From Escherichia phage kvi, in the sequence record MN850615.1: a stretch of DNA of 64,000 bases, one strand, 5' to 3'. Made by a program: the position numbers and the translations under genes. Positions within the stretch are counted from its first letter, which is position 1. Each line of letters starts with the position of its first letter. Positions 809 through 58,120 of this stretch are shown in pieces. A model generated the notes under the pieces. That model saw only the letters and a list, made by a program, of their open reading frames with translations, ran no database searches and had not been told where the DNA came from.

Positions 809-834
809 AATATAATCCTCACATCACATATTAA

Positions 835-2368: not shown

Positions 2369-2688
2369 TTAGTAGCCTCCTTTAATTCTTCGGTAAACTC
2401 CTTAAATGAATCATTAAGCTGTTTCTCTACCAACTTTGGTTTTTGTGCTACTACATAGCCTCGTGTAGCGTCTTTCATTGCTTTGTTTTGTTCTTCTGCA
2501 AACTTAGTTCTTATTCCGTACATCTCCTTTTGTAGTGAGTCTACGACCTTCATCTTTTCATCTGTCTTTTTCTTATATTCTGTAAATTCCTGATTCAGCC
2601 GATCTACCTCCTTTTTATTTTCCCACCACATATTGCCACCTACCCCCAGCAATACAGATATGATAACAATGTATATCAGCTTTGACAT
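2365..2688 (-). CDS. putative i-spanin (type II membrane, coiled-coil; PseT.3-like)
   Basis: N-terminal TM helix (LIYIVIISVLLGVGG) followed by charged coiled-coil region; start refined to ATG 2688. Confidence 0.5.
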   Translation of the reverse strand: MSKLIYIVIISVLLGVGGNMWWENKKEVDRLNQEFTEYKKKTDEKMKVVDSLQKEMYGIRTKFAEEQNKAMKDATRGYVVAQKPKLVEKQLNDSFKEFTEELKEATK

Positions 2689-2699
2689 ATTACCCCCAA

Positions 2700-2727
2700 C
2701 GACAAAAGGCGGGGAACTAGCCCCGCT
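2700..2727 (-). terminator. rho-independent terminator downstream of rnlA
   Basis: GCGGGG-CTAGTT-CCCCGC hairpin followed by TTTTGT on minus strand. Confidence 0.55.
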
Positions 2728-2732
2728 TATTA

Positions 2733-3902
2733 TTACCAATCAATCTTATCAGCCGGAATAAGTTTCTTATAATTCCGTAGATAGTAAGTTTTCATTGAAT
2801 CCAGAATACGGTCATAATCAAGACCATCAAATGCAATCATCAGACACATGAAAATATATGCTTGTGCATCACCATGTTTACGTGATTCGATAGTCGCATT
2901 TGATGCATATGTCTTTCTGTCTTCTCCCGCGTGTGCGTTATAAAATTCTGTTGCTGTCGTGAAGGCATTGCGAAGAATAGACCTGAATGCTTCCTCGAAT
3001 AGCTCGATTCGTTCCAGTGCTTCCGGTTCGCCTTCATATGCAGCACGCAAATCATCGGTTTCGCTTTCTACGACATAGTAGATCAGGTTATTAGGAAACA
3101 TCGATGTGTTTTTAATGTTATGCACACCAATATACCATTCACTCTTCACTTTGAACATTTGACCGTCTTTAGTGCGTGCAACAATTCCTTCGATACCTTC
3201 TGCGGTCCGAACTTCATCAAGAATATTGCTAAAACGCGCTGAATCAACCTGTAACGCATTTACCAGATGAGGACGTAGGATTGCGTCAGCAAATAGCATT
3301 TGATGCGGTACGTACTCTCCTGTGACGTTATGGCGTACATTCAGAAGTGTTAGCGACGGTTCAGAATATTCTACAACAATTCGGTTGCTGGGTGCTGTAT
3401 ATTCAAAGTTGAAAGTATAATCAGACCCAATATCAGCAATCTTAGCGCGTAGATCCGCATACTTCTCTGAATACAGAAGACCGTTTGCTCTCTCTGCCTG
3501 GCTTGAGTACAAGGCCGCTTTAGACTTCAACTGAACATAGCCGTTATCAATGTATGTGCTTACTAGACTACCGTCCATTTTGTCCATGACCATTTCCACA
3601 TCTTCCGGCTTAAAGCGAGCGCGATCATTCTCACCCAAATTAAAAAACTTCTCCATAGGACGAGATGCGATGCGGACCGGACGACCTTTATCGTCAATTT
3701 CAAACATGATCCCGCGACACTCTAACGCATCTGGTTTATTCCACATTTCCGGTTTGCTCAAGTACAGATAGCTAAAAATGCGCATACGGGTTTGCATCGC
3801 CGTAATTTCATCTTTGTAATAGAACGTATCAGATCCGTCACATAGTGCCATCAGATTTTTGAACAATGCTAAAACTTTTTTGTTGTTTTCTTTTGTTGAC
3901 AT
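2733..3902 (-). CDS. rnlA: RNA ligase 1
   Basis: 389 aa; Rnl1-type motifs (DALECRGIMFE, nucleotidyltransferase lysine region KMDGSL), T4-like position (gene 63). Confidence 0.85.
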   Translation of the reverse strand: MSTKENNKKVLALFKNLMALCDGSDTFYYKDEITAMQTRMRIFSYLYLSKPEMWNKPDALECRGIMFEIDDKGRPVRIASRPMEKFFNLGENDRARFKPEDVEMVMDKMDGSLVSTYIDNGYVQLKSKAALYSSQAERANGLLYSEKYADLRAKIADIGSDYTFNFEYTAPSNRIVVEYSEPSLTLLNVRHNVTGEYVPHQMLFADAILRPHLVNALQVDSARFSNILDEVRTAEGIEGIVARTKDGQMFKVKSEWYIGVHNIKNTSMFPNNLIYYVVESETDDLRAAYEGEPEALERIELFEEAFRSILRNAFTTATEFYNAHAGEDRKTYASNATIESRKHGDAQAYIFMCLMIAFDGLDYDRILDSMKTYYLRNYKKLIPADKIDW

Positions 3903-4299
3903 AATTTGTGTTCCATTCTGGTTTAAATTTGGTGATCAAAACAGGTTCTTCGATATCGGCAGTGCTTATAATATCCTTGCCCGTTGGATTCTCAATATAT
4001 AACTCAAAGCACTGGCGGTAATAGAATGTTACTGTCTTACCTTCCTCTAGCGCCTTATGAATATTCTTACTCTTGCGAGTATCCGCTGTTGGTGTTTGTC
4101 TGTTAATGCTAGTCCGGTAATAATTGATCCGCTTTCTGAGATTGACAGTCTGACCAATGTATACCAGTTCATCATCAACCGAAATAGCGTAAAGAACATT
4201 TAAACGGTTCTTCTGAGGCGGTAGAATCACGTCACCATCTTTACACTCTAAACATGAATATTTAACGAATCCATAGTTTTCTATTAGCTCATTAATCAT
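3838..4299 (-). CDS. denA: endonuclease II (GIY-YIG family)
   Basis: 153 aa; GIY-YIG-like core VLYAI...VYIGQT...LRKRINYYR; between rnlA and nrdB as in T4. Confidence 0.8.
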   Translation of the reverse strand: MINELIENYGFVKYSCLECKDGDVILPPQKNRLNVLYAISVDDELVYIGQTVNLRKRINYYRTSINRQTPTADTRKSKNIHKALEEGKTVTFYYRQCFELYIENPTGKDIISTADIEEPVLITKFKPEWNTNYVNKRKQQKSFSIVQKSDGTM

Positions 4300-4349
4300 T
4301 ATCCTTTCCTCACGTCACAACAAAGGCGGGATTTCTCCCGCCCACCTTA

Positions 4350-4748
4350 TTAACTTTCCAGAATATCGCGAGCTTCGTTACGCTCCTTGATGATTTTCAG
4401 GACAAATTCCAGTTTTTCTTTGTTTAGTGTTCCGTTTTCCATTGCTTCTTTGACGGTAAACACTCCGCCACCTTGACCGTATACAGTGACAGTGATTTCA
4501 CCTAACATCGTGGTATGAAAACCGCCAATTTTCGGTGATTCGAAAGAAACAATTACCTCGCGGACAGTATTACCGTCGTTGATTTCTGAGAGGGTAATGT
4601 CGTTTTTGTAGGCGGTTGCTTTAACCATACGGATCAGCATAGTCTGATCTGGGGAGATGGTCATTTTGTCCATTGCATGTTGCAATGCAGCGTAACCGAA
4701 AACTTTAACGAAGTCCAGAACGTCTTTGCGAGTTTGAAATTTAATCAT
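4350..4748 (-). CDS. hypothetical protein
   Basis: 132-aa ORF with upstream promoter and SD. Confidence 0.5.
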   Translation of the reverse strand: MIKFQTRKDVLDFVKVFGYAALQHAMDKMTISPDQTMLIRMVKATAYKNDITLSEINDGNTVREVIVSFESPKIGGFHTTMLGEITVTVYGQGGGVFTVKEAMENGTLNKEKLEFVLKIIKERNEARDILES

Positions 4749-4781
4749 CTTGATACTCCTTAGTTGTTTTGGTATGGGAGT

Positions 4782-4810
4782 ATCTTACTACTCCCGTGAT
4801 ATGCTGTCAA
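4782..4810 (-). promoter_or_regulatory. sigma70-like early promoter
   Basis: minus strand TTGACA (4810-4805) N17 TAAGAT (4787-4782); -10 sits in loop of GGGAGTA/TACTCCC hairpin. Confidence 0.5.
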
Positions 4811-4818
4811 CTGCTTTT

Positions 4819-4968
4819 TTATGCAACCGCAAACATCAACATTTGAACATTCTTGGCTGTCTGGCTTTCAAAGTTCTGACATTCTTTGATAATGTCCTCT
4901 ACTTTCTCGCCGGAGATCTCCGCGTAAGTTTCGATTGCCATTTTCAGTACCGCGTCAAAGTTGTTCAT
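4819..4968 (-). CDS. small hypothetical protein (49 aa)
   Basis: ATG 4968 preceded by AAGGAGAATCAA; MNNFDAVLKMAIETYAEISGEKVEDIIKEC...; own promoter upstream; below ORF-track cutoff. Confidence 0.35.
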   Translation of the reverse strand: MNNFDAVLKMAIETYAEISGEKVEDIIKECQNFESQTAKNVQMLMFAVA

Positions 4969-5006
4969 TTGATTCTCCTTAAAGTGTATTTCGTTTCGAT
5001 GGGGGT

Positions 5007-5035
5007 ATATTAATACCCCCGTTATTCAGTGTCAA
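5007..5035 (-). promoter_or_regulatory. sigma70-like early promoter
   Basis: TTGACA N17 TAATAT; -10 embedded in GGGGGTAT/ATACCCCC palindrome. Confidence 0.5.
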
Positions 5036-5254
5036 CTACTTTTTAATGACAATTTCGAATTTTGCTACCTTTCGTCCTCGTTTATTGAAAGCAACCCACG
5101 GACGGTTTTCAATATAGAACAATTCTTCGCCAATAATGAATACTGGCTGATTGTAAAGGCGACCCATCAGGTCACGCTGGCGAATGGTAGTAGATTCGTA
5201 TACTTCGCCTACTACAAAGTGTTTGCTGATAGAGTCGGTGCAAGTAAATTTCAT
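5036..5254 (-). CDS. hypothetical protein
   Basis: 72-aa ORF with SD; own promoter. Confidence 0.45.
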   Translation of the reverse strand: MKFTCTDSISKHFVVGEVYESTTIRQRDLMGRLYNQPVFIIGEELFYIENRPWVAFNKRGRKVAKFEIVIKK

Positions 5255-5283
5255 TTTGATTCTCCTTTGTTTCTTGGTGGGGT

Positions 5284-5313
5284 ATATTACTACCCCCCGT
5301 TATTCAGTGTCAA
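5284..5313 (-). promoter_or_regulatory. sigma70-like early promoter
   Basis: TTGACA N18 TAATAT; near-duplicate of promoter at 5007-5035. Confidence 0.45.
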
Positions 5314-5320
5314 CTACTTT

Positions 5321-5539
5321 TTACTTGTTGTATTCATTCCACCATTGAGTGAGCTTATCAATTATTTTTGTGTTTCTATCCAACTTATCCCACCGTTTTC
5401 TAGGGTTTATCAACCGGAATAGGTAAGGTGTACTTGTTAAGTGAACTCGGTCAATGTAGTGATTGATGTACTGCTTTTCGATTCTAAGTTTCATCTTTTT
5501 ACGATGAAAATATGCAATGACTTGTTCTTCTGTTTCCAT
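5321..5539 (-). CDS. hypothetical protein
   Basis: 72-aa basic ORF. Confidence 0.45.
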   Translation of the reverse strand: METEEQVIAYFHRKKMKLRIEKQYINHYIDRVHLTSTPYLFRLINPRKRWDKLDRNTKIIDKLTQWWNEYNK

Positions 5540-5563
5540 ATGTTCCTCCGTTTCGATGTGCGT

Positions 5564-5592
5564 ATTATGCTATGGCAAGATCAGATTGTCAA
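5564..5592 (-). promoter_or_regulatory. sigma70-like early promoter
   Basis: TTGACA N17 CATAAT followed by conserved leader CATCGAAAC..GGAGG. Confidence 0.5.
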
Positions 5593-5601
5593 CACCCAAT
5601 A

Positions 5602-5628
5602 ACAAAAAAAGTCGCCACTATGGGCGAC
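5602..5628 (-). terminator. rho-independent terminator
   Basis: GTCGCC-CATAGT-GGCGAC hairpin + TTTTTTTGT on minus strand, after 5641..6117. Confidence 0.6.
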
Positions 5629-5640
5629 TTTGAACAAACA

Positions 5641-6117
5641 TTAATCATGACCGTGATTTGCAATATCCGCTCGCGTCTTATCTTTGTGATTTCCTACGTC
5701 AAAGACACGATAACCATTTTCACGCAAAACTTTAATCACTTCTGGGTTATCCTCAAAGACTCCGACAACTTCATCTTTATCAAAGGATTTAATTACCTCT
5801 AATTTGATGTGATAGTCTTTACGGGAATCTGTACGGCCTCTCATAAAGATTTTATCAAAACACACCCCGTTAGAAATTAACCAATCAATTGTTTCCATGT
5901 AAGCATGTGAACTTCGTCCGGTGAGGATGTAAATCAAATGCCCGTTGTCGGAAAGAGCATTAATAACACGAATTACATCGTAAATGGGGGAATCTCCCCC
6001 ACATGCCTTGTTATATTCGATCCATGACTCGACTTTATCAAGATTTTCGGTTGGCATCTTTGCTAGTCGATGCGTTGGATCTGTGATCGTAAAATCTAAA
6101 TCGACAAAATATATCAT
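5641..6117 (-). CDS. HAD-superfamily phosphatase (putative nucleotidase)
   Basis: 158 aa; N-terminal DxDxT motif (VDLDFTIT), later T/S (ILTGRS), K and acidic (FEDNPE) motifs; adjacent to nrdB. Confidence 0.5.
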   Translation of the reverse strand: MIYFVDLDFTITDPTHRLAKMPTENLDKVESWIEYNKACGGDSPIYDVIRVINALSDNGHLIYILTGRSSHAYMETIDWLISNGVCFDKIFMRGRTDSRKDYHIKLEVIKSFDKDEVVGVFEDNPEVIKVLRENGYRVFDVGNHKDKTRADIANHGHD

Positions 6118-7274
6118 AGATATTTCCCGAATCGGTTGTAGTCATCGTCTGTTAAATCGGTATTAACCTGAGATACCAGATACATGATCTCTACTTCTTG
6201 CGCCGCGTTTTGAACTTCGTCAGAGTTCAACCATTTACGCATCCACGGTAACGGATGACGACGAACACTAAACGGGCTTTTCAGTCCGGCAGCACGCATA
6301 CGGGAATCTGCCAGGTATTCTACATAGGTTTTCAGAATTTCCGGTGACAGGTTAGGAATTGCCCCCATTGCGAATAGGTGGTCTACCCATTCTTTTTCTT
6401 GCTCGACAACATCCAGAAAGATTTTCGTTGCTTCGCCTTCAAGTTCTTCCGCAATCTGTTTCCACTCATCACCATCAACCCCCGTTTGCCATTGACGAAT
6501 AATGTATTGTGTGCCTTTTAAGTGAAGTTGTTCATCACGCGCAATAAATTTCATGATCTTCGCGTTACCTTCCAGTAAACCACGTTCGGCAAAGCTGAAA
6601 GTACATGCAAAGGACACATAAAAACGAATTGCTTCCAGTGCATTGACGCAGTGTGCACACAGATAAATCGAAGCCATCAGATCTCGTTTTGTATCTTCAA
6701 AAAATCTTCTTGCATCATCTAATGCTGTCTGGTCGTCTCGTTCTTCCCAATAACGGAGATCTTCTTTTGCATTCTCATACTTACGAATCCAATAAAGAAC
6801 ATCATCATAATATTTCCCGATAGATTCCGCTCGCTTCATGATAGCAGGGTTATCGATGATCTGGTCGAACTCACTAGCCGGATCAATGAAACAGTTACGC
6901 ATAATGTGTGTATAGCTTCGGCTATGAATCGTTTCGCTGAATGTCCATGTTTGCAACCATGTATCGAGAGTTGGATCAGATACAATTGGACCAAATGCTG
7001 CGGACGGTGCGCGACCTTGAATAGAATCAAGTAATGTCTGATACTTCAAGTTTTCAGTAAAGAAACGCTTTTCAACGTCACCCATATTAAGATATTGAAT
7101 GCGGTCGGTTGCAAGTGAAATTTCTTCTGGACGCCAGAAAAATGACAATTGCTTTTCGATCAGTTCTTCAAATACTTGATGACGCTGAATATCATAGCGA
7201 GCTATACCCAACCCACTACCCAGAAACATCGGTTCGTTCATAATATCAACATGTTCGCGGTTAAATACGCTCAT
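6114..7274 (-). CDS. nrdB: ribonucleotide reductase small (beta) subunit
   Basis: 386 aa; class Ia R2 di-iron/tyrosyl radical ferritin-like signature; T4 synteny. Confidence 0.9.
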   Translation of the reverse strand: MSVFNREHVDIMNEPMFLGSGLGIARYDIQRHQVFEELIEKQLSFFWRPEEISLATDRIQYLNMGDVEKRFFTENLKYQTLLDSIQGRAPSAAFGPIVSDPTLDTWLQTWTFSETIHSRSYTHIMRNCFIDPASEFDQIIDNPAIMKRAESIGKYYDDVLYWIRKYENAKEDLRYWEERDDQTALDDARRFFEDTKRDLMASIYLCAHCVNALEAIRFYVSFACTFSFAERGLLEGNAKIMKFIARDEQLHLKGTQYIIRQWQTGVDGDEWKQIAEELEGEATKIFLDVVEQEKEWVDHLFAMGAIPNLSPEILKTYVEYLADSRMRAAGLKSPFSVRRHPLPWMRKWLNSDEVQNAAQEVEIMYLVSQVNTDLTDDDYNRFGKYL

Positions 7275-7289
7275 TAATTCACCTCACTA

Positions 7290-7457
7290 TCACTTTTTAA
7301 CACAAAAGAACTTAGTATTTCTGTTTATTTCGCTATCCTGCTGCAATTCCTGCACAGCTTCAAAACAATTTTGATATGATGAAAACTCTACGCTGGTAAC
7401 AGTTCCTTTATTATATACGCCTACGCTAACGGAAAGCAATAACCATAATGTAGTCAT
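7290..7457 (-). CDS. small secreted/membrane protein, paralog B (55 aa)
   Basis: MTTLWLLLSVSVGVYNKG... two Cys; TAATG coupling to upstream paralog; unlisted in ORF track. Confidence 0.35.
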   Translation of the reverse strand: MTTLWLLLSVSVGVYNKGTVTSVEFSSYQNCFEAVQELQQDSEINRNTKFFCVKK

Positions 7458-7630
7458 TAGTTCACCTTTTGTTTTTCAACGCAATATAGATTCATAAAGC
7501 GTTTATTGTCTTCGCTGATAATCTCGCGAGCTTTAACGCAATCCTGCTTTGTTGCAAACTCAATGCTTGACATATTTCCGTAATTATACATTGAATTGCT
7601 TATTGCAATCAATAACCATACAGTAGCCAT
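7457..7630 (-). CDS. small secreted/membrane protein, paralog A (57 aa)
   Basis: MATVWLLIAISNSMYNYG... two Cys; TAATG coupling to upstream ORF. Confidence 0.35.
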   Translation of the reverse strand: MATVWLLIAISNSMYNYGNMSSIEFATKQDCVKAREIISEDNKRFMNLYCVEKQKVN

Positions 7631-7797: not shown

Positions 7798-7828
7798 AAT
7801 AAAATCCTCACTTGTTTTTGATGGTTGT

Positions 7829-7857
7829 ATTATAGCGGGGATTTCTCCCCGCGTCAA
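7829..7857 (-). promoter_or_regulatory. sigma70-like early promoter with hairpin spacer
   Basis: TTGACG N17 TATAAT; spacer is perfect GCGGGGA-GAAA-TCCCCGC palindrome. Confidence 0.5.
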
Positions 7858-7865
7858 CACTTATT

Positions 7866-10109: not shown

Positions 10110-10147
10110 ATTACCTCACTTCATATTTTAGCAGGAACAAGTTTATC

Positions 10148-10163: not shown

Positions 10164-10177
10164 TTCGCCCCCTTTGT

Positions 10178-12659: not shown

Positions 12660-12690
12660 AATATAATCCTCTCTTTGTTTTGATGTTTGT

Positions 12691-12718
12691 ATTATACACT
12701 ATTGCGTTACGCTGTCAA
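12691..12718 (-). promoter_or_regulatory. sigma70-like early promoter
   Basis: TTGACA N16 TATAAT. Confidence 0.5.
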
Positions 12719-13044: not shown

Positions 13045-13073
13045 TGTTAATCCTCCTTTGTTTCGATGTGTGT

Positions 13074-13101
13074 ATTATACATTACCGCGCCAGCATGTCA
13101 A
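13074..13101 (-). promoter_or_regulatory. sigma70-like early promoter
   Basis: TTGACA N16 TATAAT. Confidence 0.5.
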
Positions 13102-13125
13102 TATATTTTTCATAAAAATTTAGGC

Positions 13126-13152
13126 AATAAAAAAGCCTCCCCGAAGGGAGGC
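13126..13152 (-). terminator. rho-independent terminator downstream of gene 32
   Basis: GCCTCCC-TTCG-GGGAGGC + TTTTTTATT on minus strand. Confidence 0.65.
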
Positions 13153-13163
13153 TGTAAAATTCA

Positions 13164-14138
13164 TTACATCGCTAACAGAGAGTCCAGGTCATCCAGATCA
13201 GAAGCGGAGGAAGTACCGCCACCCAGGTCCAGAGATGCCATCAGGTCATCAGCGGAAGAATCTAACGCCGTGCTAGCTGCGTTAATACCAACTACAGTGC
13301 TAGCTGCGGTCATACCAGAATCGAATGCATTCATCTGTGCGTCAAAATCGTCAAGCTGGCTGTTAATCGCTGCCGCAGCACTGGAAGCCGCAGCACCAGC
13401 TACCATAGAAACGCCCATAGTTTTCTTAAATTTGGTTTCCAGTTCATCGAACGGTTTAAACTGGCTAGGCGCTACAATCTCACTCAGATCAACCATGTTT
13501 TCCATCAGATATTTCTGATATGCTTCGTCTTCAATTTTCGGAAGCTGTGATTGCTGCATGAAACGAGAATCATCATAGTTCTGGTGTTTATCAACCTTCT
13601 TAGCTTTCAGGAGGAAGTTAGCACCGGAGAACACACAAGTTACATCTACCGGAACTTCGCCCATATCGGTATTCACGTTCACCATCGCAACGATCTTATC
13701 ATAAATTTTCTGACCGAAGCGGAATTTGAATACCTTACCTTCATTTTCTGGCGCTTGAGGATCTTTCAGTACCAGAATATTTGCGTAGTAAGAGGCTTTA
13801 CGCTTAATCAGTTGCCATTCGGTTTTATCGGTATTGTACAGGTCTTTTTCGTTAATATATTTGCACACAGGGCAAGAATCAAAATCACCGTGGGTGCTGG
13901 AGCAGTTTTCCCAATACCATTTACCATTAACTTTGAAGGAATGGTTTACCAGTTTCACAATCGGCAGACCGTCTTCTGTCTTAGACGGCAGGAAGCGAAT
14001 CAGGGCTTCACCGTTACCTGCTGCATCAGTCTTAATCTTCCACTCTTTCGGATCTTCTTTGGAGAAACCGTTGCCACCTTTCAGTGCGGCCAGTTGAGCT
14101 TGCAGTTTGGAGCTATCTTGACGACGAAACATGTTCAT
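13164..14138 (-). CDS. 32: single-stranded DNA-binding protein gp32
   Basis: 324 aa; gp32 zinc-binding subdomain (H..C..C..C: [10 protein letters not shown]), LAST-like basic N-term, acidic Ser/Asp-rich C-terminus. Confidence 0.9.
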
Positions 14139-14184
14139 AATTATACCTCTTTATACATTAACTATTGATTAATTTACGTTTTAT

Positions 14185-14213
14185 ACTATATCAGATACTT
14201 AATTGCTTGTCAA
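14185..14213 (-). promoter_or_regulatory. sigma70-like promoter for gene 32
   Basis: TTGACA N17 TATAGT within 3' end of HNH ORF. Confidence 0.4.
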
Positions 14214-24427: not shown

Positions 24428-24452
24428 AGCGGGGATTCTCCCCGCTTTTCTA
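24428..24452 (+). terminator. hairpin terminator/attenuator after gene 36
   Basis: AGCGGGGA-TTC-TCCCCGCT + TTTCT. Confidence 0.45.
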
Positions 24453-32044: not shown

Positions 32045-32078
32045 AATATATTCCTCAGTGTTTTGTCTTGATGGGAGT

Positions 32079-32107
32079 ATCTTACTACTCACTTAATCCG
32101 GTGTCAA
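32079..32107 (-). promoter_or_regulatory. sigma70-like early promoter
   Basis: TTGACA N17 TAAGAT. Confidence 0.5.
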
Positions 32108-32114
32108 CTACTTT

Positions 32115-32270
32115 TTAAATTTCTTCTACAGTAAAGTCTTCAATGTTGTTGTGCTCGGCGAACGTTGCCAGACCAGCATTCCATGCATCATCCTCAGAGA
32201 AGAATACACCGTAACGTTCATATCCTTTAGCGCCTTCAAATTTAACCATTAATTTGTGAGTATGTTTCAT
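32115..32270 (-). CDS. small hypothetical protein
   Basis: start refined to ATG 32270 downstream of promoter (SD GAAGGAG); 51 aa. Confidence 0.4.
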   Translation of the reverse strand: MKHTHKLMVKFEGAKGYERYGVFFSEDDAWNAGLATFAEHNNIEDFTVEEI

Positions 32271-32301
32271 TTTGATTCTCCTTCGTTGTCTTGATGAGTT
32301 T

Positions 32302-32330
32302 AGTATAGGGGATCGCCGATCCCCTGTCAA
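32302..32330 (-). promoter_or_regulatory. sigma70-like early promoter with hairpin spacer
   Basis: TTGACA N17 TATACT; spacer GGGGATC-GGC-GATCCCC. Confidence 0.5.
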
Positions 32331-32339
32331 CAACTATTT

Positions 32340-32552
32340 TTAATTTTTACCCGCTCGTGCATTAATACGCATTTTCTGAATAGCCATGATCTGGCTTACT
32401 GCTTCTTCTTTACGTTCTTGCGTGATAACGTGACCAGATTCCGCAAACTCTCCCGCAACTTCTTCTACGATCTCGCGAACTTGAGAACGTCCAAATATGC
32501 GGTTTCCTTCGTAGCTCATAAATTCTGTTACTACTTGCTCGATAGATTTCAT
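32340..32552 (-). CDS. small hypothetical protein
   Basis: start refined to ATG 32552 (SD AAAGGAG); 70 aa. Confidence 0.4.
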   Translation of the reverse strand: MKSIEQVVTEFMSYEGNRIFGRSQVREIVEEVAGEFAESGHVITQERKEEAVSQIMAIQKMRINARAGKN

Positions 32553-32581
32553 GTGATTCTCCTTTCGTTTGGTATGGTAGT

Positions 32582-32610
32582 ATAATACTACTCCCATTTC
32601 TTTACGTCAA
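32582..32610 (-). promoter_or_regulatory. sigma70-like early promoter
   Basis: TTGACG N17 TATTAT. Confidence 0.45.
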
Positions 32611-32613
32611 CAA

Positions 32614-32775
32614 CTATTTTAAATTATTTTCGACCTTCACCCATTCCGCGTATTCTTGCGCGGCTACTTTCGGATTTAGTCCGTCTTCGTACATTGCTTC
32701 AAGTAATGCTTCGTCGGTGGGCTTATACCCTAGATAAGCCTCCACCTGATTTTTCCAAATTTTATACCAGTTCAT
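32614..32775 (-). CDS. small hypothetical protein
   Basis: start refined to ATG 32775; 53 aa. Confidence 0.35.
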   Translation of the reverse strand: MNWYKIWKNQVEAYLGYKPTDEALLEAMYEDGLNPKVAAQEYAEWVKVENNLK

Positions 32776-33052: not shown

Positions 33053-33083
33053 CTTTGATTCTCCTTTTGTTTGGTATGTGTGT

Positions 33084-33112
33084 ATTATGCAATGATGGAT
33101 TTGTGAAGTCAA
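33084..33112 (-). promoter_or_regulatory. sigma70-like early promoter
   Basis: TTGACT N17 CATAAT. Confidence 0.45.
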
Positions 33113-33121
33113 CAACTTTTT

Positions 33122-33153
33122 AAAATAAAAAAGCCGACCACACGGATCGGCTT
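33122..33153 (-). terminator. rho-independent terminator
   Basis: GCCGATC-CGTGT-GGTCGGC + TTTTTTATTTT on minus strand; near-identical to plus-strand terminator at 22743. Confidence 0.6.
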
Positions 33154-33162
33154 AATAATCAG

Positions 33163-33558
33163 TTACTTACTAAATTTCTTTTTGGCTTCGTCTACCGCAT
33201 GAGATGCCAGTACCGCAGCCGCATGTGCACTTTTATCTGTGTTGCAGAGAACGCCCAGATAAACATCACGCCAAAGTTTAATCATCTCGTAGATCATATC
33301 AATATCATTTTCTTGTTTGTTGGCGATGCTATTCGTCGTTATCTGGTAAGGTAACGGCTTGATCTGTACTGGTTCCGCCATCGGGCTAATCGGTTTCGGA
33401 TCAGTCATAATAGGTGCTGTTGTGGGTGGTGTTTTCCATACGTCATTATTCCACGGTTTAATCGTTGTATCGTAAAGTTTATAAGGATTTTTGTCTGGAT
33501 TAACCATCCAGGCATGATGAGTACCCAAACCATTTGAAGTGATGCGTCGTTCAGTCAT
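33163..33558 (-). CDS. hypothetical protein
   Basis: 131-aa ORF. Confidence 0.45.
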   Translation of the reverse strand: MTERRITSNGLGTHHAWMVNPDKNPYKLYDTTIKPWNNDVWKTPPTTAPIMTDPKPISPMAEPVQIKPLPYQITTNSIANKQENDIDMIYEMIKLWRDVYLGVLCNTDKSAHAAAVLASHAVDEAKKKFSK

Positions 33559-39940: not shown

Positions 39941-40136
39941 TTTGATTCTCCTTTGTTACTAGATAACGAATTTGGTCTTGCATTGCGATCAGTTCCCAGC
40001 GTGCTACTTTCATCATGGAAACTGACTCTTTGAACATAATATTAGCTTTTTCCTTCTCCCCTGTCAAGTAGATTTCTGCAATTTTTTCACAAAATTTTTG
40101 AGTTTCTTCATTCTTAAACGGTTTCATATAAGTCAA
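39933..40136 (-). CDS. hypothetical protein
   Basis: 67-aa ORF. Confidence 0.4.
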   Translation of the reverse strand: MTYMKPFKNEETQKFCEKIAEIYLTGEKEKANIMFKESVSMMKVARWELIAMQDQIRYLVTKENQNA

Positions 40137-40157
40137 CCTTTTGTTTTCGATGGGGAC

Positions 40158-40186
40158 ATTATGATATATCCCCGATCCAGTGTCAA
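40158..40186 (-). promoter_or_regulatory. sigma70-like early promoter
   Basis: TTGACA N17 CATAAT; -10 in loop of GGGGA/TCCCC hairpin. Confidence 0.45.
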
Positions 40187-40193
40187 CAGATTT

Positions 40194-40529
40194 TTAATCT
40201 TTTTTCAATGCATCCATTACTCGCTCTGCGATCAGTTCTCGTAAGCACTGATAACCATGATATTTGATGGCAATGTCACGCAGATCATTAACCAGTTCCC
40301 GTACTTCATGGTCTTTCAGATCGTCTCTGTATTTCGATTTAACCGTGTCTTTAGGTGGATTGTGGATAACCTGAAAACCTTGTTCTGCAATCACTGCGGC
40401 TTCTCGCTGGCGTTCATGTTGTACTGTATTTTTGATCAGGTCTACTTCCATGAACTTTGTCATACTCATCATCATGTTATTCTTTTTGCTCATTATTAAA
40501 TCCTCATAAACGAAAAGGGAGACTCCCAT
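40194..40529 (-). CDS. hypothetical protein
   Basis: 111-aa ORF. Confidence 0.45.
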   Translation of the reverse strand: MGVSLFVYEDLIMSKKNNMMMSMTKFMEVDLIKNTVQHERQREAAVIAEQGFQVIHNPPKDTVKSKYRDDLKDHEVRELVNDLRDIAIKYHGYQCLRELIAERVMDALKKD

Positions 40530-40551
40530 TATAGAGAATCTCCCTTGTATG

Positions 40552-41115
40552 TCAACTAAAATTTAAAGATGCAAACTCCCCGTGATGAATTTTTGCATAT
40601 TCATCATATGCTCTAGCGGCTTCCTCCTGAGTAGCAAACGATCCTATGTATTTTCTGTATCCGTTTATCCTTATTTGTGCTTGCCACGGTCTTTTGCTAG
40701 ATCCTTTGCGATGAGTAACACCATTATATATGCTCGTGCACCCGTCAATTTTCTTTTTATTGTACATGTTTTGTTGTTGTGTTGCCTCCCGTAAATTTGG
40801 TGGATTGTTGTTTTCTGGATTCCCGTCTATGTGGTCTATTACCTTAACCTGTGTTCCATATTCAAGAAACCAGACAATTCTATGTACAAGATATGTAGAT
40901 GTTCTCTTTTTAACCTTATTGTAAACATCTATTGCCAAATGACCGTAATTTAACTTTTTTGTTTTTACTTTATCACCGACTCGGTAGAAATATCCCTCTG
41001 GTAGACCATTAAAAGACGGACTATTTGTTTTGTGATATAGAACACCTTCCGTGTGTTCAAATCTGCGTTTTAATTCCTCTTGAATTTCAGTATTCCAAAA
41101 TTTCGCACTTTTCAT
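40552..41115 (-). CDS. HNH homing endonuclease with AP2 domain (Mob-like)
   Basis: HNH core (YLVHRIVWFLEYG..VIDHIDGNPENNNPPNLREATQQQN) plus AP2-like (GVTHRKGSSKRPWQAQIRINGYRKYIGSFATQEEAARAYDEYA); immediately downstream of gene 39. Confidence 0.8.
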   Translation of the reverse strand: MKSAKFWNTEIQEELKRRFEHTEGVLYHKTNSPSFNGLPEGYFYRVGDKVKTKKLNYGHLAIDVYNKVKKRTSTYLVHRIVWFLEYGTQVKVIDHIDGNPENNNPPNLREATQQQNMYNKKKIDGCTSIYNGVTHRKGSSKRPWQAQIRINGYRKYIGSFATQEEAARAYDEYAKIHHGEFASLNFS

Positions 41116-46945: not shown

Positions 46946-46974
46946 AATTGATTCTCCTTAGTTGGCATGTGTGT

Positions 46975-47003
46975 ATTATTGTCTATCTGGTTTGTGCTGT
47001 CAA
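46975..47003 (-). promoter_or_regulatory. sigma70-like early promoter
   Basis: TTGACA N17 AATAAT. Confidence 0.45.
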
Positions 47004-47006
47004 CAC

Positions 47007-47510
47007 TTAAATTAAAGAAAATTTGTAAATCTCTATCAGATCGCCGTTACACGCGTAAACTTCCTCGATCTCATCAAGGATCATGGTCGTCCCTGTCTTG
47101 TATATGCACTCGCGCTCATCTGCCAACATAGCATACAAAGACAGTCGAGTAGTCGGATTGTCATACTCTTTAGACACCACTCGGTCAATAGCATGTTCGT
47201 AATAATTCATGCAAGGCTTGGTAGGTTTTATTGCAATAATCTTTCCTGTTGCATAAACATCGGTCGCAAAGTCCTCTGCTGTTGATTGCAGTGGCGTAAA
47301 GCTCATAGGACGCTCTACAACGAAAGAATCGCCTACAATTAAGGTATCCAGCTTACGACCTTCTCTTTTGCTCACACCGCGATACAAGGCTTCATGATGC
47401 ACTAACCGCTCAGTCTTTTCGATCAATCCATTAAGGATCGACATATCGATATTTTCTTTAGAGTTCATCACTTCATCAATGATGTTAAGTTCTTCTGGTG
47501 TAAATTGCAT
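47007..47510 (-). CDS. putative ADP-ribosyltransferase (ModA/ModB-like)
   Basis: 167 aa; ordered R (LYRG) ... S-x-T (MSFT) ... E-x-E (ADERE) motifs; T4 modA/modB position. Confidence 0.4.
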   Translation of the reverse strand: MQFTPEELNIIDEVMNSKENIDMSILNGLIEKTERLVHHEALYRGVSKREGRKLDTLIVGDSFVVERPMSFTPLQSTAEDFATDVYATGKIIAIKPTKPCMNYYEHAIDRVVSKEYDNPTTRLSLYAMLADERECIYKTGTTMILDEIEEVYACNGDLIEIYKFSLI

Positions 47511-47543
47511 AATAAAAAAGCCTCCAATCTTTCGACGGGAGGC
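47511..47543 (-). terminator. rho-independent terminator
   Basis: GCCTCC-N12-GGAGGC + TTTTTTATT on minus strand. Confidence 0.5.
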
Positions 47544-47579
47544 ATAATAAAACCATTATAGAGTAGTGTCAACTAATTT

Positions 47580-48104
47580 TTAGTAGCCTCGTTCTTGACG
47601 GGCGAAGTTTTCAGCATTTTTCAGATAGTACAGAATAAAGAGTTCTTGAGCGTCAATACCCAGCGGGATCATCTTTGACAGAATGAAGTGGATAGCGTCC
47701 ACAAATTCAAATTTCACTTCAAGCTGATCTTCCGGTGACAGTTCAGAGAATTTACGCGCTCGCGCTTCCCCGTGGTTCTTTTTCCACATTTTCCAGATTG
47801 CACTTGCATCTTTACCATTGGACATTCCACCCAGCGATGTGTAAAGCTCTCGTGTTTCGTCTGCGATAGCGTCATCCATCCGCTGCATCCAATCCAGCAT
47901 TTCACCGCAAGTCTCTAGCTTAGTTGGATTTGGGACCCAATCAAATTTTTCGGATAGTGCAACCTGCAAACCAGTTTGCATTTCGAGCATCACCTGAAAC
48001 GGATCTTTACCTTCTGCAATCGCGTGATGATATGCGGCGATAGCCGCGTTAATATCTTTTTCGTTAACCAGACCAGCACAAGAATTAAATTCTGACATAT
48101 TCAC
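47580..48104 (-). CDS. 56: dCTP/dUTP pyrophosphatase gp56-like (MazG-type)
   Basis: 174 aa; MazG-like EExxE/D helices; position between mod-like gene and primase. Confidence 0.5.
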   Translation of the reverse strand: MNMSEFNSCAGLVNEKDINAAIAAYHHAIAEGKDPFQVMLEMQTGLQVALSEKFDWVPNPTKLETCGEMLDWMQRMDDAIADETRELYTSLGGMSNGKDASAIWKMWKKNHGEARARKFSELSPEDQLEVKFEFVDAIHFILSKMIPLGIDAQELFILYYLKNAENFARQERGY

Positions 48105-53632: not shown

Positions 53633-53860
53633 CTATTCAGTTAATCCGTAATACTTTAATTGCTTCATTGTTATTCGATCTTTGTAGTGCTCTTGAATTA
53701 ACTTTTTCATCGCATCAACATCGATCGTCACAAATACTTCGTTGCTGTGATTTCCGTGAACTTTCTTGAAATGCTCTATGCCTTCCTCACGTTCACGTTT
53801 AATCTTTTCAATGTCTCTCATCGTATATTTCTCACGTTGGCGGGTATCGTCACCCAACAC
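53633..53860 (-). CDS. hypothetical protein
   Basis: 75-aa ORF, the only gene between 43 and uvsX. Confidence 0.4.
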   Translation of the reverse strand: MLGDDTRQREKYTMRDIEKIKREREEGIEHFKKVHGNHSNEVFVTIDVDAMKKLIQEHYKDRITMKQLKYYGLTE

Positions 53861-53882
53861 CCGCCATTATACACACTTTATC

Positions 53883-55359
53883 TTAAATGTCAAACAGGTC
53901 AGTCAGAGAAGCAACTTTCTCATATTGCAGCTTTGCAGCCGTGGTAATGTTCTCCAGTGGTTTGACGAAAGTCTTATTAAACAACAAAGGCCAGTCTAAC
54001 CACTTTAACACCTCTGATTCAATTTCTGGAGGAATACGAGTACCGGACAACCAACCAAAACAGATTTCTCCAAACGGATTTCGATCTTTCAGCGGTACAA
54101 TCATAACCTTCTCGCCCTCACGAATTGGATCTAGTCCGAATTTTCGAGCATTACGATTATAACACAATACACTCTTAACCGCATACGGACAACCCTTAAT
54201 CGGATACCCGTTTGAATCGCTGTATTTCTGTAGGTTGTTTGCAGATGATACCGCAGCAACCTCAAGATAATCAAGTTTTCTAAATTCTTGCTCAAAAATA
54301 CCGTAGTATTCCTGCAATGACTCTTCACCTTCCTGCAACATACGGCGAATACATTCTTTCAGTGATTTCTGACATGCTTTAGGGGTGGAGCTACGTTGCG
54401 TTTCCAAGCCCATGATTTTTAGCTTAGGTTCAGCAAAGCGCGTTCCTTCCATATCCCAAACATTAAGAGCATAACGCTTTTTGCCAGTCCAGAATCCACC
54501 GATACCCGCAGATTTCAACGGAGGACCAGCAATTGCCTCACGGTCCATAAACATCAAGTGCTCATAGTTGTTCATGTACTCGCATAACTCGCGATATCCC
54601 TTGTCGATAATAGGTTCCATTCGATGTTTACCGAAATTATCAAGGAAGTCAACAAGTTTTTCGGTATCGTCGAAACGGTCTTCCCCGCCAACCTTATCAA
54701 CAACATTGTTAACCAGCACATAAACGGAGTCAGTATCACAATAACGAACATATGCAAAATCGGTTGTTCCGCAAAGCTCGTTTAAGTATTCGTTAATCTT
54801 ACGCTCAATCCACTGAATTGCAAGCTGACCAAACAAGGTGATCGCACTAGCGTTACGGAGATCATAAAAACGGAATTTAGGATTCCCCAACGCACCATAA
54901 AGGGAGTTGATCAAAACTTTTCGAGAAAGCTGGTTTGTATTGCACAAGATCGACTCGTCTTTACATTCTTCCAGCAATTTCTCTAAGGCATCTTTACTTA
55001 ATTCAGAAAGCATCGATTTAAACGCTTCATCAAAGTCGTGACGTACTTCAACGCTATAGCTAATGGTTCCCCCATAAACATGATTTTCATCGTGTAGAAT
55101 CGCTTTACAGAGTTCAGCATTGCGATCACATGCCAACATCATGTTTTTGTACTGCTTACGCTGATCGAATACCTTTTTAATCTCAATCGGTACGATACCG
55201 TGAATATCTTTTCTATACATCCATCCGTTAGGAGAGCAAGAATACTCATCACTCGGACGTGGTGCAGTTTTATTGATATACTCGTGCATCGGTGCAGCAT
55301 CAAAAGATCCGGCGATTGTTTCCGGCGAAATGTTAACCTGACGGATGATTGATGGATAC
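53883..55359 (-). CDS. 43: DNA polymerase gp43, exon 2 (polymerase domain)
   Basis: frame open from 55358 (YPSIIRQVN...) with TAA just upstream; family-B motifs KILINSLYGALG and YCDTDS. Confidence 0.85.
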
Positions 55360-57675: not shown

Positions 57676-57707
57676 AATATAAACTCCTTCACTTACGAAA
57701 GACACTC

Positions 57708-57736
57708 ATTATAGGGGAATCGACTTAGTTTGTCAA
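57708..57736 (-). promoter_or_regulatory. sigma70-like promoter upstream of gene 43
   Basis: TTGACA N17 TATAAT. Confidence 0.5.
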
Positions 57737-57757
57737 TACCCCTATCCCATCAGTATC

Positions 57758-58120
57758 TTATCGCCCGATCTGATATTTCTCGATCAGCGTCCACTCTTCT
57801 TTCTGTTTGAAAGACAATACACGGAAATTATTAACTTCGGTAGTTTCAAAATCACTATCAATCAGGGTACACAGATTCCACTGCGCCAGAAGTTTTGCAA
57901 TGTTATTACGGCGTAATTCATCTTCCCACGTCATTTTAACACTACGACCATCTAATTTCAACAACTCCTTGAAATGAACGATGTAATAGCGCCCTTTCTT
58001 CTGGAGAATATGACAAGACTGATACAGTGTCTTGTCTCGATTGTTGGCAATGCCGCAGCGGGTTAAAGTTTCCTTAATTTTAAGGAAGTTTTCAGGACTA
58101 ATCAAATTAATTTCAATCAT
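57758..58120 (-). CDS. regA: translational repressor RegA
   Basis: 120 aa; conserved RegA block TRCGIANNRDKTLYQSCHILQKKGRYYIVHFKE. Confidence 0.85.
   Translation of the reverse strand: MIEINLISPENFLKIKETLTRCGIANNRDKTLYQSCHILQKKGRYYIVHFKELLKLDGRSVKMTWEDELRRNNIAKLLAQWNLCTLIDSDFETTEVNNFRVLSFKQKEEWTLIEKYQIGR

Follow-up and report, generated by a model that had tools for sequence, protein, structure and literature searches.

Composite promoter/stem-loop cassettes are known from several T4-type phages. PeSLs (promoter-early stem-loops) were defined in RB49 and phi1 (Arbiol, Comeau, Kutateladze, Adamia and Krisch 2010, Genome Biol Evol 2:140; PMC2839356), with 51 reported in RB49. Each combines a near-consensus TTGACA-N17-TATAAT promoter, preceded by an A-rich tract with the stop codon of the upstream gene, with a G-run/C-run stem-loop, and each ends in a Shine-Dalgarno sequence and ATG. 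The stem-loop may occupy the spacer, overlap either the -10 or the -35, lie upstream of the -35 or come directly before the start. They precede orphan genes in variable regions, with indels and crossovers at the cassettes. Recombination between cassettes has been reported in RB49/phi1, including mini-circles formed by recombination between neighbouring cassettes (ORF192 and ORF210), and in mini-circle 210 the crossover lies within the loop. In lacZ assays, PeSL206/205 gave high expression and the stem-loop of PeSL211/210 lowered expression to a degree comparable to rrnB T1 (PMC2839356).

The PeSLs and PmSLs of T4/PST and KVP40/nt-1 are likewise composite promoter/stem-loop cassettes in variable regions with gene indels (Comeau, Arbiol and Krisch 2014; PMC4122927). 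Their stem-loops, however, are not inside the promoter but immediately upstream of it, the stems are A/T-flanked (A3-4G3...C3T3-4 or AGNA...TCNT), and the promoters are off the sigma70 consensus or Mot-dependent. The PeSL authors also drew a comparison with lambdoid "morons" and integron gene cassettes (PMC2839356), which are single genes with their own expression signals whose insertion is targeted to intergenic sites. Integrons need an integrase and attC sites, whereas PeSLs have no known dedicated recombinase.

Here we describe 64,000 nucleotides of Escherichia phage kvi (MN850615.1), referred to below as the window. It is an RB49-like T4-type coliphage (Krischvirus), collinear with RB49 from gene 217, where the window starts, with 94-98% identity over aligned blocks. 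An initial annotation had described early-promoter cassettes that recur along the sequence and have a GC palindrome within the spacer or -10, and pattern counts and folding both confirm these. The promoter-plus-hairpin units are very probably PeSLs, the composite promoter/terminator cassettes of RB49-type T4-like phages. They differ from the RB49/phi1 elements in nothing of substance: several match their RB49 copies base for base, and a few differ by point changes, hybrid arms or neighbouring gene content. The experimentally tested RB49 PeSLs 193/192, 206/205 and 211/210 correspond to positions just outside the window. PeSLs were published for this same lineage in 2010 and 2014, so no new kind of element is found here; our additions are incremental and concern the position of the 5' arm, exclusivity with terminators, the absence of a T-tract and the edges of rearrangements. 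The initial annotation had not linked the cassettes to the element already described in this lineage.

Promoter cassettes of the window

The strict sigma70 pattern (TTGAC[AGT]-N16-18-TAnnnT, with at least four of six positions agreeing with TATAAT) is found at 45 minus-strand sites in the window and at one plus-strand site; 200 dinucleotide shuffles yielded 2.6 +/- 1.5 matches (maximum 7). If CATAAT or AATAAT is also accepted as a -10, the minus strand has 54 sites, of which eighteen lie between genes and have a Shine-Dalgarno sequence and ATG 24-46 nt past the -10; the earlier estimate of at least fifteen minus-strand sites therefore holds. The signal is confined to near-consensus sites: in a scan of positions 1-15000, 20 sites matched at 10 or more of 12 positions, and 19 of them lay on the minus strand; at 9 of 12 matches the same region showed no enrichment (55 vs 42.6 +/- 6.7).

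The cassettes are intergenic, measure about 60-120 nt and make up a large share of intergenic space. Their order is upstream stop codon, A-rich tract, TTGACA, N16-18, TAnnnT, C-rich discriminator, leader, Shine-Dalgarno and ATG. As in PeSLs, TTGAC[AGT] is paired with a -10 carrying A2 and T6 at a spacing of 16-18 in 18/18 cassettes, and all 18 have the Shine-Dalgarno and ATG at the 3' end. The consensus before TTGACA reads ttAAAaAgttG, and most cassettes have a stop codon 3-12 nt upstream of the -35, again a PeSL feature. A compact three-frame stop (TAA..TAG..TGA) was considered as a 5'-edge feature and dropped, being present in only 5/18 cassettes. In an independent check with a repeat finder, the window's largest dispersed repeat families (D1, D2, D3 and D6) proved to be the cassettes. 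The leader previously described as conserved does recur, but more loosely than implied: the exact CATCGAAAC follows three cassettes only (4993-5001, 5550-5558 and 13060-13068), with variants including CATCAAAAC, CATACCAAAC and CATCAAGAC in the remainder.

Two clusters of cassettes, at 4.7-5.6 kb and 32.0-33.2 kb, precede ORFs of 49-132 aa, in keeping with the orphan genes of PeSL variable regions; a Pfam scan of five ORFs from the two clusters gave no matches. Isolated cassettes flank gene 43, an arrangement that Arbiol et al. (PMC2839356) also remarked on for PeSLs.

Position and stability of the hairpins

Among the 18 cassettes, all on the minus strand, ten contain a stable GC-rich hairpin within the promoter or directly after it, two have decayed stems, three have a canonical terminator upstream and three have neither. 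Short GC hairpins also form part of the early promoters of the phage N4 virion RNA polymerase, where the extruded DNA hairpin is the recognition element for the phage polymerase. The promoters of the window differ in being plain sigma70 consensus, and a third of them have no hairpin at all.

The hairpin covers the -10 in cassettes 4810, 5035, 5313, 40186 and 40555. Cassette 4810 (4749..4821; -35 at 4805-4810, -10 TAAGAT at 4782-4787), upstream of the ORFan at 4350-4748, has its -10 in the loop of GGGAGTA-gtaaga-TACTCCC (4776-4795; -11.9 kcal/mol, z -5.3), and an identical copy of the cassette is present in RB49. Upstream of the ORFan at 4819-4968, cassette 5035 (4969..5038; -35 at 5030-5035, -10 TAATAT at 5007-5012) contains GGGGGTAT-taat-ATACCCCC (5001-5020; -14.6 kcal/mol, z -3.1). 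Cassette 5313 (5255..5323; -35 at 5308-5313, spacer 18, -10 TAATAT at 5284-5289) precedes the ORFan at 5036-5254 and contains GGGGTA-gtaata-TACCCC (5279-5296; -13.5 kcal/mol); upstream, 29 nt are identical between this cassette and cassette 5035, and the ORFs downstream of the two are unrelated. Tandem duplication of neighbouring 72-aa ORFs behind near-identical cassettes was ruled out, there being no similarity between them. In cassette 40186 (40128..40196; -35 at 40181-40186, -10 CATAAT at 40158-40163), the -10 lies in the loop of GGGGAUAU...AUGUCCCC (40152-40173; -14.4 kcal/mol). The 13-bp hairpin of cassette 40555 (40494..40560; -35 at 40550-40555, -10 TATAAT at 40528-40533) occupies 40515-40546, spans the -10 and is followed by TTTTCG (-21.3 kcal/mol, z -5.8).

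Two further stems over the -10 have decayed. Cassette 32107 (32045..32117; -35 at 32102-32107, -10 TAAGAT at 32079-32084) reads GTGAGTA/TACTCCC, with 5 bp remaining at 32075-32090, where RB49 and six other genomes have a perfect GGGAGTA/TACTCCC. Cassette 32610 (32553..32616; -35 TTGACG at 32605-32610, -10 TATTAT at 32582-32587) carries a C>A change that leaves a shifted stem, GTAGTA-tta-TACTAC (32577-32591); its RB49 orthologue has a perfect 9-bp stem.

As in some PeSLs, the hairpin lies in the spacer of cassettes 7857 and 32330. The former (7798..7865; -35 TTGACG at 7852-7857, -10 TATAAT at 7829-7834) is located between nrdA and the ORF at 7630-7797, and its spacer is filled by GCGGGGA-gaaa-TCCCCGC (7835-7852; -15.1 kcal/mol, z -5.0). 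The latter (32271..32342; -35 at 32325-32330, -10 TATACT at 32302-32307) contains AGGGGATC-ggc-GATCCCCT (32307-32325; -12.8 kcal/mol). Upstream of gene 43, the outer stem of cassette 57736 (57676..57760; -35 at 57731-57736, -10 TATAAT at 57708-57713), AUAGGGG/CCCCUAU at 57711-57745, encloses the -35 and spacer, with its 3' arm overlapping the -10 (-17.7 kcal/mol). In two cassettes the hairpin comes just after the -10. Cassette 53893, just 3' of gene 43 (53822..53893; -35 at 53888-53893 within the end of gene 43, -10 TATAAT at 53866-53871), has its discriminator filled by the 5' arm of a 12-bp hairpin (53838-53866; -22.2 kcal/mol, z -6.3). Cassette 47572, upstream of modB (47511..47582; -35 at 47567-47572, -10 TATTAT at 47544-47549), has GCCUCC...GGAGGC at 47520-47543 with a T-run, which begins directly after the -10 (-15.0 kcal/mol) and whose 3' arm doubles as the Shine-Dalgarno.

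The remaining cassettes have no embedded hairpin. A canonical terminator lies upstream of the -35 in cassettes 5592 (5540..5643; -35 at 5587-5592, -10 CATAAT at 5564-5569; terminator 5608-5631 with a T-run), 13101 (13045..13166; -35 at 13096-13101, -10 at 13074-13079, leader CATCGAAAC; terminator 13134-13153) and 33112 (33053..33165; -35 TTGACT at 33107-33112, -10 CATAAT at 33084-33089; terminator at about 33132-33152 with a T-run). Neither is present in cassettes 47003 (46946..47009; -35 at 46998-47003, -10 AATAAT at 46975-46980), 12718 (12660..12718; -35 at 12713-12718, -10 at 12691-12696, leader CATCAAAAC) and 14213 (14139..14213; -35 at 14208-14213, -10 TATAGT at 14185-14190). The last is the early promoter upstream of gene 32, and the RB49 annotation has an "early RB49 promoter" at the equivalent place. 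The palindromes first listed at 4776-4795, 5001-5020 and 32308-32324 (GGGGATC-ggc-GATCCCC) are all found at those positions; GCGGGGA-gaaa-TCCCCGC is also real, though it had been placed one base off (7836-7853 rather than 7835-7852).

Folded alone, the ten hairpins range from -11.9 to -22.2 kcal/mol (z -2.4 to -6.3). When whole cassettes were scored with the hexamers kept fixed and the remainder shuffled, 8/18 had z < -3, compared with 1/36 other promoter-like sites at z < -2 (Mann-Whitney p=0.0018). For 38 distinct cassettes whose stem overlaps the -10, the proportion of pair cells that pair is 77.5% in the true register vs 32-54% in slid registers, and one stem position takes A-U, G-C, G-U, C-G and U-A. 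Covariation in this class is modest, most of it from a single stem position, as the copies are close relatives of one another. Stem-breaking single-genome mutations are not rare (about 6 among orthologue comparisons), and constraint on the stems is therefore moderate. Rfam covariance models at gathering score gave no matches in the whole window.

These patterns bear on the suggestion, raised in the initial annotation, that the palindromes are protein-binding operators, here bound by a dimeric repressor, of phage or host, that would turn early promoters off. Dyad symmetry and overlap with the spacer or -10 are the classical operator position. Yet there are at least six unrelated arm sequences at the same positions (GGGAGTA, GGGGGTAT, GCGGGGA, GGGGATC, GGGTGTAT and ATGCGGTTAT), loop length and position vary, and it is the pairing that is kept rather than the sequence. 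A third of the cassettes have the same promoter with no palindrome, and ordinary terminators distant from any promoter have the same arms. Together with the exclusivity between embedded hairpins and terminators described below, this makes the operator reading highly improbable.

Relation to terminators

Stems of the same kind occur outside promoters. The stand-alone terminators at 2709..2726 (GCGGGG-ctagtt-CCCCGC with a T-run, the same G-run/C-run stem style) and 4324..4343 (GGGCGGGA-gaaa-TCCCGCCT with a T-run) are on the minus strand, and a late-region terminator at 24428..24446 (A-GCGGGGA-ttc-TCCCCGC-T followed by TTTT) is on the plus strand. The terminators previously proposed at 2709-2726, 4325-4342 and 24428-24446 are thus real stem-loops followed by T-runs. 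The accompanying claim that palindrome families recur between promoters and terminators is borne out by the GCGGGGA/TCCCCGC arms at 24429-24445, which are those of the 7835-7852 promoter hairpin.

We grouped cassettes from 12 Krischvirus genomes into 47 orthologue groups. Twenty-three have only an embedded hairpin, 11 only an upstream canonical terminator, one has both and 12 have neither, such that the two features are mutually exclusive (Fisher p=7e-4). The embedded hairpins resemble intrinsic terminators in their GC-rich stems, which are 6-9 bp long (13 at most in the window), their short loops and their location at the 3' end of a gene. Most differ in that the stem is followed by the -10 or the start region ATCGAAAC instead of a T-tract: in 22/24 groups with an embedded hairpin, the 8 nt that follow the stem contain fewer than 5 T, the exceptions in the window being 40515-40546 and 47520-47543, whereas all stand-alone terminators of the window have the tract. 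The GC hairpin directly before a U-tract that defines an intrinsic terminator is therefore not what the embedded hairpins present, and a terminator scan of 1-15000 picked up 0/4 of those located there.

The RB49 PeSL211/210 reads TTGACAGGGGATcacgtATCCCCTATACT and also has no T-tract in its native context. Positions 32302-32330 of the window belong to the same class and share its position and stem family. By analogy with the published sister cassettes, those of the window would have promoter activity, and their stem-loops would block downstream expression. This block is presumably true termination. Since the T-tract is absent in 22/24 groups, "terminator" may be the wrong word for the published lacZ effect, which pausing, RNA processing or translation effects may also cause.

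One possible reading, which we hold to be less than likely, is that the embedded hairpins are RNA 3'-end caps or processing barriers rather than terminators. Read-through RNA would be cut or trimmed back to the stem, which would shield the upstream message from 3' exonucleases and separate it from the downstream message. This is in line with the contrast in T-tracts, and a T-less GGGGGC-gaaa-GCCCCC hairpin stands alone, with no promoter, in the td-nrdA gap (10157-10172). The stems are mostly 6-9 bp (12-13 bp in two), which is short for RNase III. The exclusivity with canonical terminators suggests that both do the same job. The published lacZ assay reads expression, not termination as such (PMC2839356), but for a T-less stem-loop to cut lacZ like rrnB T1, as that of PeSL211/210 did, is unexpected of a pure stability element. 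The RNA-stability or processing option of the initial annotation is compatible with the missing T-tract.

Proposed mechanism

We favor a PeSL model. Each cassette has an UP-like A-rich tract, in which the upstream gene has its stop codon, and a near-consensus sigma70 early promoter that would be read by unmodified host RNA polymerase. The same unit also contains the GC-rich hairpin, a short leader, and the ribosome-binding site and start codon for the gene that follows, which is usually an orphan. A literature search found no transcript-end mapping for any Krischvirus. Desplats and colleagues reportedly mapped 5' ends in RB49 in 2002. Standard sigma70 geometry and a statement by Nolan et al. 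2006 place the predicted start site 7 nt past the -10. According to that paper, 5'-end mapping bears out the RB49 early consensus, and C is preferred at -3 to -1. In the cassettes, the predicted start is an A about 7 nt past the -10 (AUCGAAAC, AUACCAAAC and AUCAAGAC).

The 5' arm of the hairpin is always upstream of the cassette's own predicted start, and therefore the hairpin should be unable to form in the cassette's own transcript. It would form only in RNA arriving from upstream, and would terminate, attenuate or cap such a read-through transcript. With that transcript stopped at the hairpin, each small gene would thus be an insulated unit. A cassette of ~70 nt would be an economical design, in that it ends one transcript, starts the next and gives a recombination handle.

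Rearrangement edges at the cassettes

Cassettes are alike over tens of bases and the genes between them are unrelated, and we therefore consider the cassettes to be homology patches for recombination, at which the phage recombination machinery may swap, delete or insert genes. In this way PeSLs would help to account for the exchange of small accessory genes by T4-type phages with regulation left intact. One option of the initial annotation, that of modular promoter/terminator units spread by recombination, is the published and best-supported PeSL model (PMC2839356).

Across six genomes, all indel breakpoints in the 32.0-33.1 kb cluster fall within cassettes, as at PeSL junctions. For example, a deletion in ECD7 runs from 32575 to 33056, and a 22-nt overlap in the leaders marks the crossover. 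Of 36 distinct rearrangement edges, 15 are no more than 10 nt from a cassette, and cassettes occupy 2.7% of the window. Part of this excess is to be expected, since a gene-sized indel has to end between genes to be viable and cassettes account for much of the space there. In LF73P4, an 851-nt insertion has the 7798..7865 cassette duplicated at its edges. Relative to RB49, a replacement has the cassettes 12660..12718 and 13045..13166 as its edges, and an inserted HNH gene abuts the -35 of the 40494..40560 cassette. Three cassette-adjoining insertions are homing-endonuclease genes, which have their own mobility mechanism. Hybrid stems (GGGGGTA/TACTCCC) are also seen and fit crossovers inside the loop.

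The same edges and hybrid stems, with the published crossover within a loop, could be taken to mean that the palindromes act in DNA. A cruciform or single-strand fold would draw a structure- or sequence-specific protein (endonuclease VII, gp46/47 or a putative GGGG...CCCC binder) and start recombination, making the cassettes semi-autonomous mobile units. In a variant, the extruded loop would show the -10 as a single strand and tune promoter strength to supercoiling. The arms are perfect inverted repeats with short loops, the commonest family has the -10 hexamer in the loop, and Arbiol et al. (PMC2839356) speculate on a DNA-binding protein for the GGGG...CCCC motif. We regard this reading as unlikely. 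Most breakpoints are in the A-rich tract or leader, not the stem; stem sequences vary among cassettes, which makes a sequence-specific binder unlikely; the stem may sit in the spacer with the -10 outside, and so has no fixed relation to the -10; and exclusivity with RNA terminators is not predicted. It is also quite doubtful that the T-less promoter hairpins in particular work in DNA or nascent single strands rather than as terminators, either by recruiting a recombination nuclease or by presenting the -10 in a loop and tying early-promoter strength to supercoiling or replication. If true, this would be only partly new, given the DNA-binding-protein version floated by Arbiol et al. (PMC2839356).

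Wobble pairs were considered as an RNA-versus-DNA test. Internal non-Watson-Crick pairs among distinct cassettes are G.T/T.G in nine cases and never A.C, at about five independent loci, which fits sense-strand RNA folding but is suggestive only (p about 0.06). Counted orthologue by orthologue, there are 2 G.T vs 2 A.C, the A.C being at outermost pairs, and we do not rely on the asymmetry.

A scan of viral contigs with TTGACA-N17-TANNNT-N6-ATCGAAAC (17 specified bases) returned at least 120 loci, chance level for the size of the collection, and was dropped. Among the matches listed, nearly all were single and in unrelated contigs, with two matches in each of three contigs. Annotated Krischvirus genomes were used in its place; about 58 related genomes are public now, compared with two in 2010.

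Identity and distribution of the early-promoter cassettes

A 2-kb stretch around the cassettes matches 58 phage records at 90–99% identity, all of them RB49-like T4-type coliphages of the genus Krischvirus. Window positions 1–37353 are collinear with RB49 126.7–164 kb and 37354–64000 with RB49 1–24.8 kb, in aligned blocks of 94–98% identity, with a few indels interrupting them. The genes are encoded on the minus strand, apart from a late tail-fiber and holin block at approximately 18–29 kb. The distal long-tail-fiber genes (24553–28087, plus strand) diverge strongly from those of RB49, Brandy, Whisky, and LF73P4, and the best match left is 74% identical over 325 nt. This is expected host-range variation, unconnected with the cassettes. 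No tRNA genes were found in the window, and an Rfam search of its full length gave no matches.

The minus strand holds 45 matches to TTGAC(A/G/T)-N16-18-TAnnnT and the plus strand a single one, against a chance level of 2.6 ± 1.5 in dinucleotide shuffles. Accepting CATAAT or AATAAT as the -10 gives 54 minus-strand sites, 18 of which are intergenic and followed by a Shine-Dalgarno sequence and ATG 24–46 nt past the -10. These cassettes also form the largest dispersed repeat families of the window in an unbiased repeat search. Not all strict sigma70-like matches belong to cassettes: approximately 31 are found elsewhere on the minus strand, where about 2.6 would be expected for the whole window. 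They fall mostly on the sense strand of coding sequence (for example 14258–17911, 36695–37832, and 60538–62026), are free of hairpins (mean z ~0), and in some cases are hypothetical early promoters in the RB49 annotation. MotA and middle promoters are absent from RB49, which may explain this density.

Arbiol et al. 2010 (PMC2839356) have already described these cassettes, in RB49 and phi1, as promoter-early stem-loops (PeSLs). They counted about 51 copies in RB49, presented reporter data in support of a promoter and a terminator function, and linked the elements to differential ORFans. Crossovers were placed between the -10 and the ATG, within the A-rich region, or in the loop, and mini-circle products were described. 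The ORF numbers of that study are RB49 locus tags; the published test copies 193/192, 206/205, and 211/210 lie just outside the window, which starts at gene 217. Comeau et al. 2014 (PMC4122927) extended the idea to T4/PST and KVP40/nt-1, although the stems there are different and sit upstream of the promoter. We found no transcript-end mapping for any Krischvirus in the literature. With both element and phage lineage known, the points presented here add detail to the published picture but leave it unchanged: a one-way hairpin geometry, exclusivity with canonical terminators, systematic absence of T-tracts, and breakpoint statistics from more genomes.

Cassette anatomy and conservation of the stems

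Alignment on the -35 and -10 hexamers gave a consensus in which the stop codon of the upstream gene lies within ttAAAaAgttG, followed by TTGACA, a 16–18 nt spacer, TAtaAT, a C-rich discriminator (Ac.c.C), aTc.aAA, AAGGAG.., and ATG. The initial annotation had proposed a conserved leader; a consensus does exist, but it is looser than claimed, with the exact CATCGAAAC following only three cassettes. The spacer and -10 flank are the only freely variable part, and this is where the hairpins are found. The stem lies in the spacer in two cassettes and over the -10 in five, often with the hexamer in the loop, an arrangement that imposes weak hexamers (TAAGAT and TAATAT, for example). In two further cassettes the stem over the -10 has decayed; in their RB49 orthologs it is perfect, with 7 and 9 bp. 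The -35 is enclosed by one stem, and two start directly after the -10. Of the remaining six cassettes, three carry an ordinary terminator upstream of the -35 in place of an embedded stem and three have neither.

All four palindromes quoted in the initial annotation are present, three exactly as placed and the fourth at 7835–7852 rather than 7836–7853, and the three terminator stems it listed are true stem-loops with T-runs. Its claim that arms recur in terminators also holds, as the 24429–24445 arms are those of the 7835–7852 promoter hairpin. When both hexamers were fixed and the remaining sequence shuffled, z fell below -3 in 8 of 18 cassettes, versus z < -2 in 1 of 36 non-cassette promoter-like sites (p=0.0018). 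Ten hairpins folded in isolation gave -11.9 to -22.2 kcal/mol (z -2.4 to -6.3). The feature is real, non-random, and functionally meaningful, and its first interpretation was essentially correct.

Among 124 distinct cassette cores from 12 Krischvirus genomes, 65 have a stem of at least 6 Watson-Crick pairs, with at least six different arm sequences occupying the same positions. Where the stem overlaps the -10 (38 distinct cassettes), pairing is seen in 77.5% of pair cells versus 32–54% in slid registers, and A-U, G-C, G-U, C-G, and U-A are all found at one stem position. About six changes break a pair, each in a single genome, so the constraint is not absolute. A palindrome could also be a protein operator. 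This is unlikely here, as the arms are many and unrelated, pairing is conserved but sequence is not, the same arms are found in ordinary terminators, and a third of the cassettes have no palindrome.

Proposed effect of the embedded hairpin on read-through transcription

We placed the predicted start 7 nt past the -10 by standard sigma70 geometry. This is consistent with Nolan et al. 2006, who state that 5'-end mapping matches the early consensus of RB49 and who note C at -3 to -1. The hairpin 5' arm is always upstream of this +1, including in the two "downstream" hairpins, where it fills the discriminator exactly. The hairpin can therefore form only in transcripts arriving from upstream. Across 47 ortholog groups, 23 have an embedded hairpin, 11 a canonical upstream terminator, one both, and 12 neither. 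This mutual exclusivity (Fisher p=7e-4) argues that the two do the same job.

The embedded hairpins are not textbook intrinsic terminators, since 22 of 24 embedded hairpin groups have no T-tract. The RB49 PeSL211/210 stem-loop, AGGGGAT-cacgt-ATCCCCT, sits in the spacer and natively lacks a T-tract, and it cut downstream lacZ about as much as rrnB T1 (Arbiol et al. 2010, PMC2839356). A sister of the window hairpin at 32307–32325 thus blocks downstream expression, and may do so by termination. A role in RNA 3'-end protection or processing would fit the missing T-tracts, and it may coexist with attenuation.

Upstream of modB, the 3' arm of a terminator hairpin (47520–47543, minus strand) is the Shine-Dalgarno sequence itself (GGAGGC), and the 5' arm is placed after the -10 and before the predicted start. 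In read-through RNA, the hairpin would both cause termination and hide the ribosome site, while RNA from the cassette's own promoter would leave that site free. A stand-alone hairpin without a promoter, GGGGGC-gaaa-GCCCCC (10157–10172), is found between td and nrdA. It has no T-tract on the sense (minus) strand, and only in the plus-strand direction does it read as a terminator. In LF73P4, an insertion of 311 nt occupies this site.

Rearrangements at the cassettes

In the 32.0–33.1 kb cluster, single small ORFs are inserted, deleted, or replaced in six relatives compared with the window. Every breakpoint is inside a cassette, either at the stop codon and A-rich tract immediately 5' of the -35 or in the leader (for example the ECD7 deletion of 32575–33056, with a 22-nt overlap). 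A comparison of 12 genomes along the entire window gave 36 distinct rearrangement edges, 15 of them no more than 10 nt from a cassette, although cassettes and margins make up 2.7% of the sequence. Some of this excess is to be expected, since a viable indel has to end between genes. Neighboring cassettes have 29 identical bases in common, yet unrelated ORFs follow them. Some stems are hybrids, for example GGGGGTA/TACTCCC, and resemble the products of crossovers inside the loop. A role of the hairpins as DNA, in recombination or promoter tuning, is a low-probability reading that Arbiol et al. 2010 (PMC2839356) also raised. Most breakpoints are outside the stems, and such a role would not predict that hairpins and terminators exclude each other.

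Two HNH_3 + AP2-domain homing-endonuclease-like genes (40552–41115 and 14199–14795, minus strand) are not in RB49, and both insertions directly adjoin a cassette or promoter: at 40555 the edge coincides with the first base of a -35, and at 14137 it adjoins the gene 32 start. The RB49 1.46-kb "endonuclease" gene p240 is missing from the window, with a 109-aa orphan ORF (12715–13044) in its place. Adjacent small ORFs of 58 and 80 aa (44124–44359 and 43885–44305) have in common a 58-nt stretch, 90% identical, that takes in the leader with the ribosome site, which is the same in both, and ~40 nt at the start of the coding sequence; segment 44181–44302 is an indel relative to RB49. This pair is a local partial duplication without a cassette.

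The gene 43 region and late-promoter motifs

Relative to RB49, a 1.1-kb insertion (55359–56485, minus strand) splits gene 43, the DNA polymerase. Its 274-aa ORF (55500–56324) matches HNH homing-endonuclease family phrog_12434 (E=1.9e-130), and it has its own late-promoter motif, TATAAATA, at 56348–56355. The 3' part gives a sub-threshold match to group I intron RF00028 (30.6 bits versus a gathering score of 50, E=1.5e-5). The insertion is probably a mobile group I intron. It is complete in 11 of 24 matching records, with partial matches of 80–90% in Acinetobacter, Proteus, Providencia, and Erwinia phages.

The gene 43 leader hairpin, CUUUCG-UAAG-UGAAGG (57686–57701, minus strand), overlaps the Shine-Dalgarno sequence. 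In RB49 the loop is UAAA, a loop cited in a review as the translational operator of gp43, where the bases on the 3' side of the loop matter for binding; phage kvi thus carries a loop variant. Between genes 45 and 44, a terminator hairpin with arms of the PeSL family and a T-run, GGGGAGTA-taaa-TACTCCCC (59707–59726, minus strand), has the T4-type late-promoter motif TATAAATA (59714–59721) as its inner stem and loop. The equivalent RB49 site is annotated as a hypothetical late promoter, and this hairpin is a late-promoter counterpart of the promoter-in-hairpin design.
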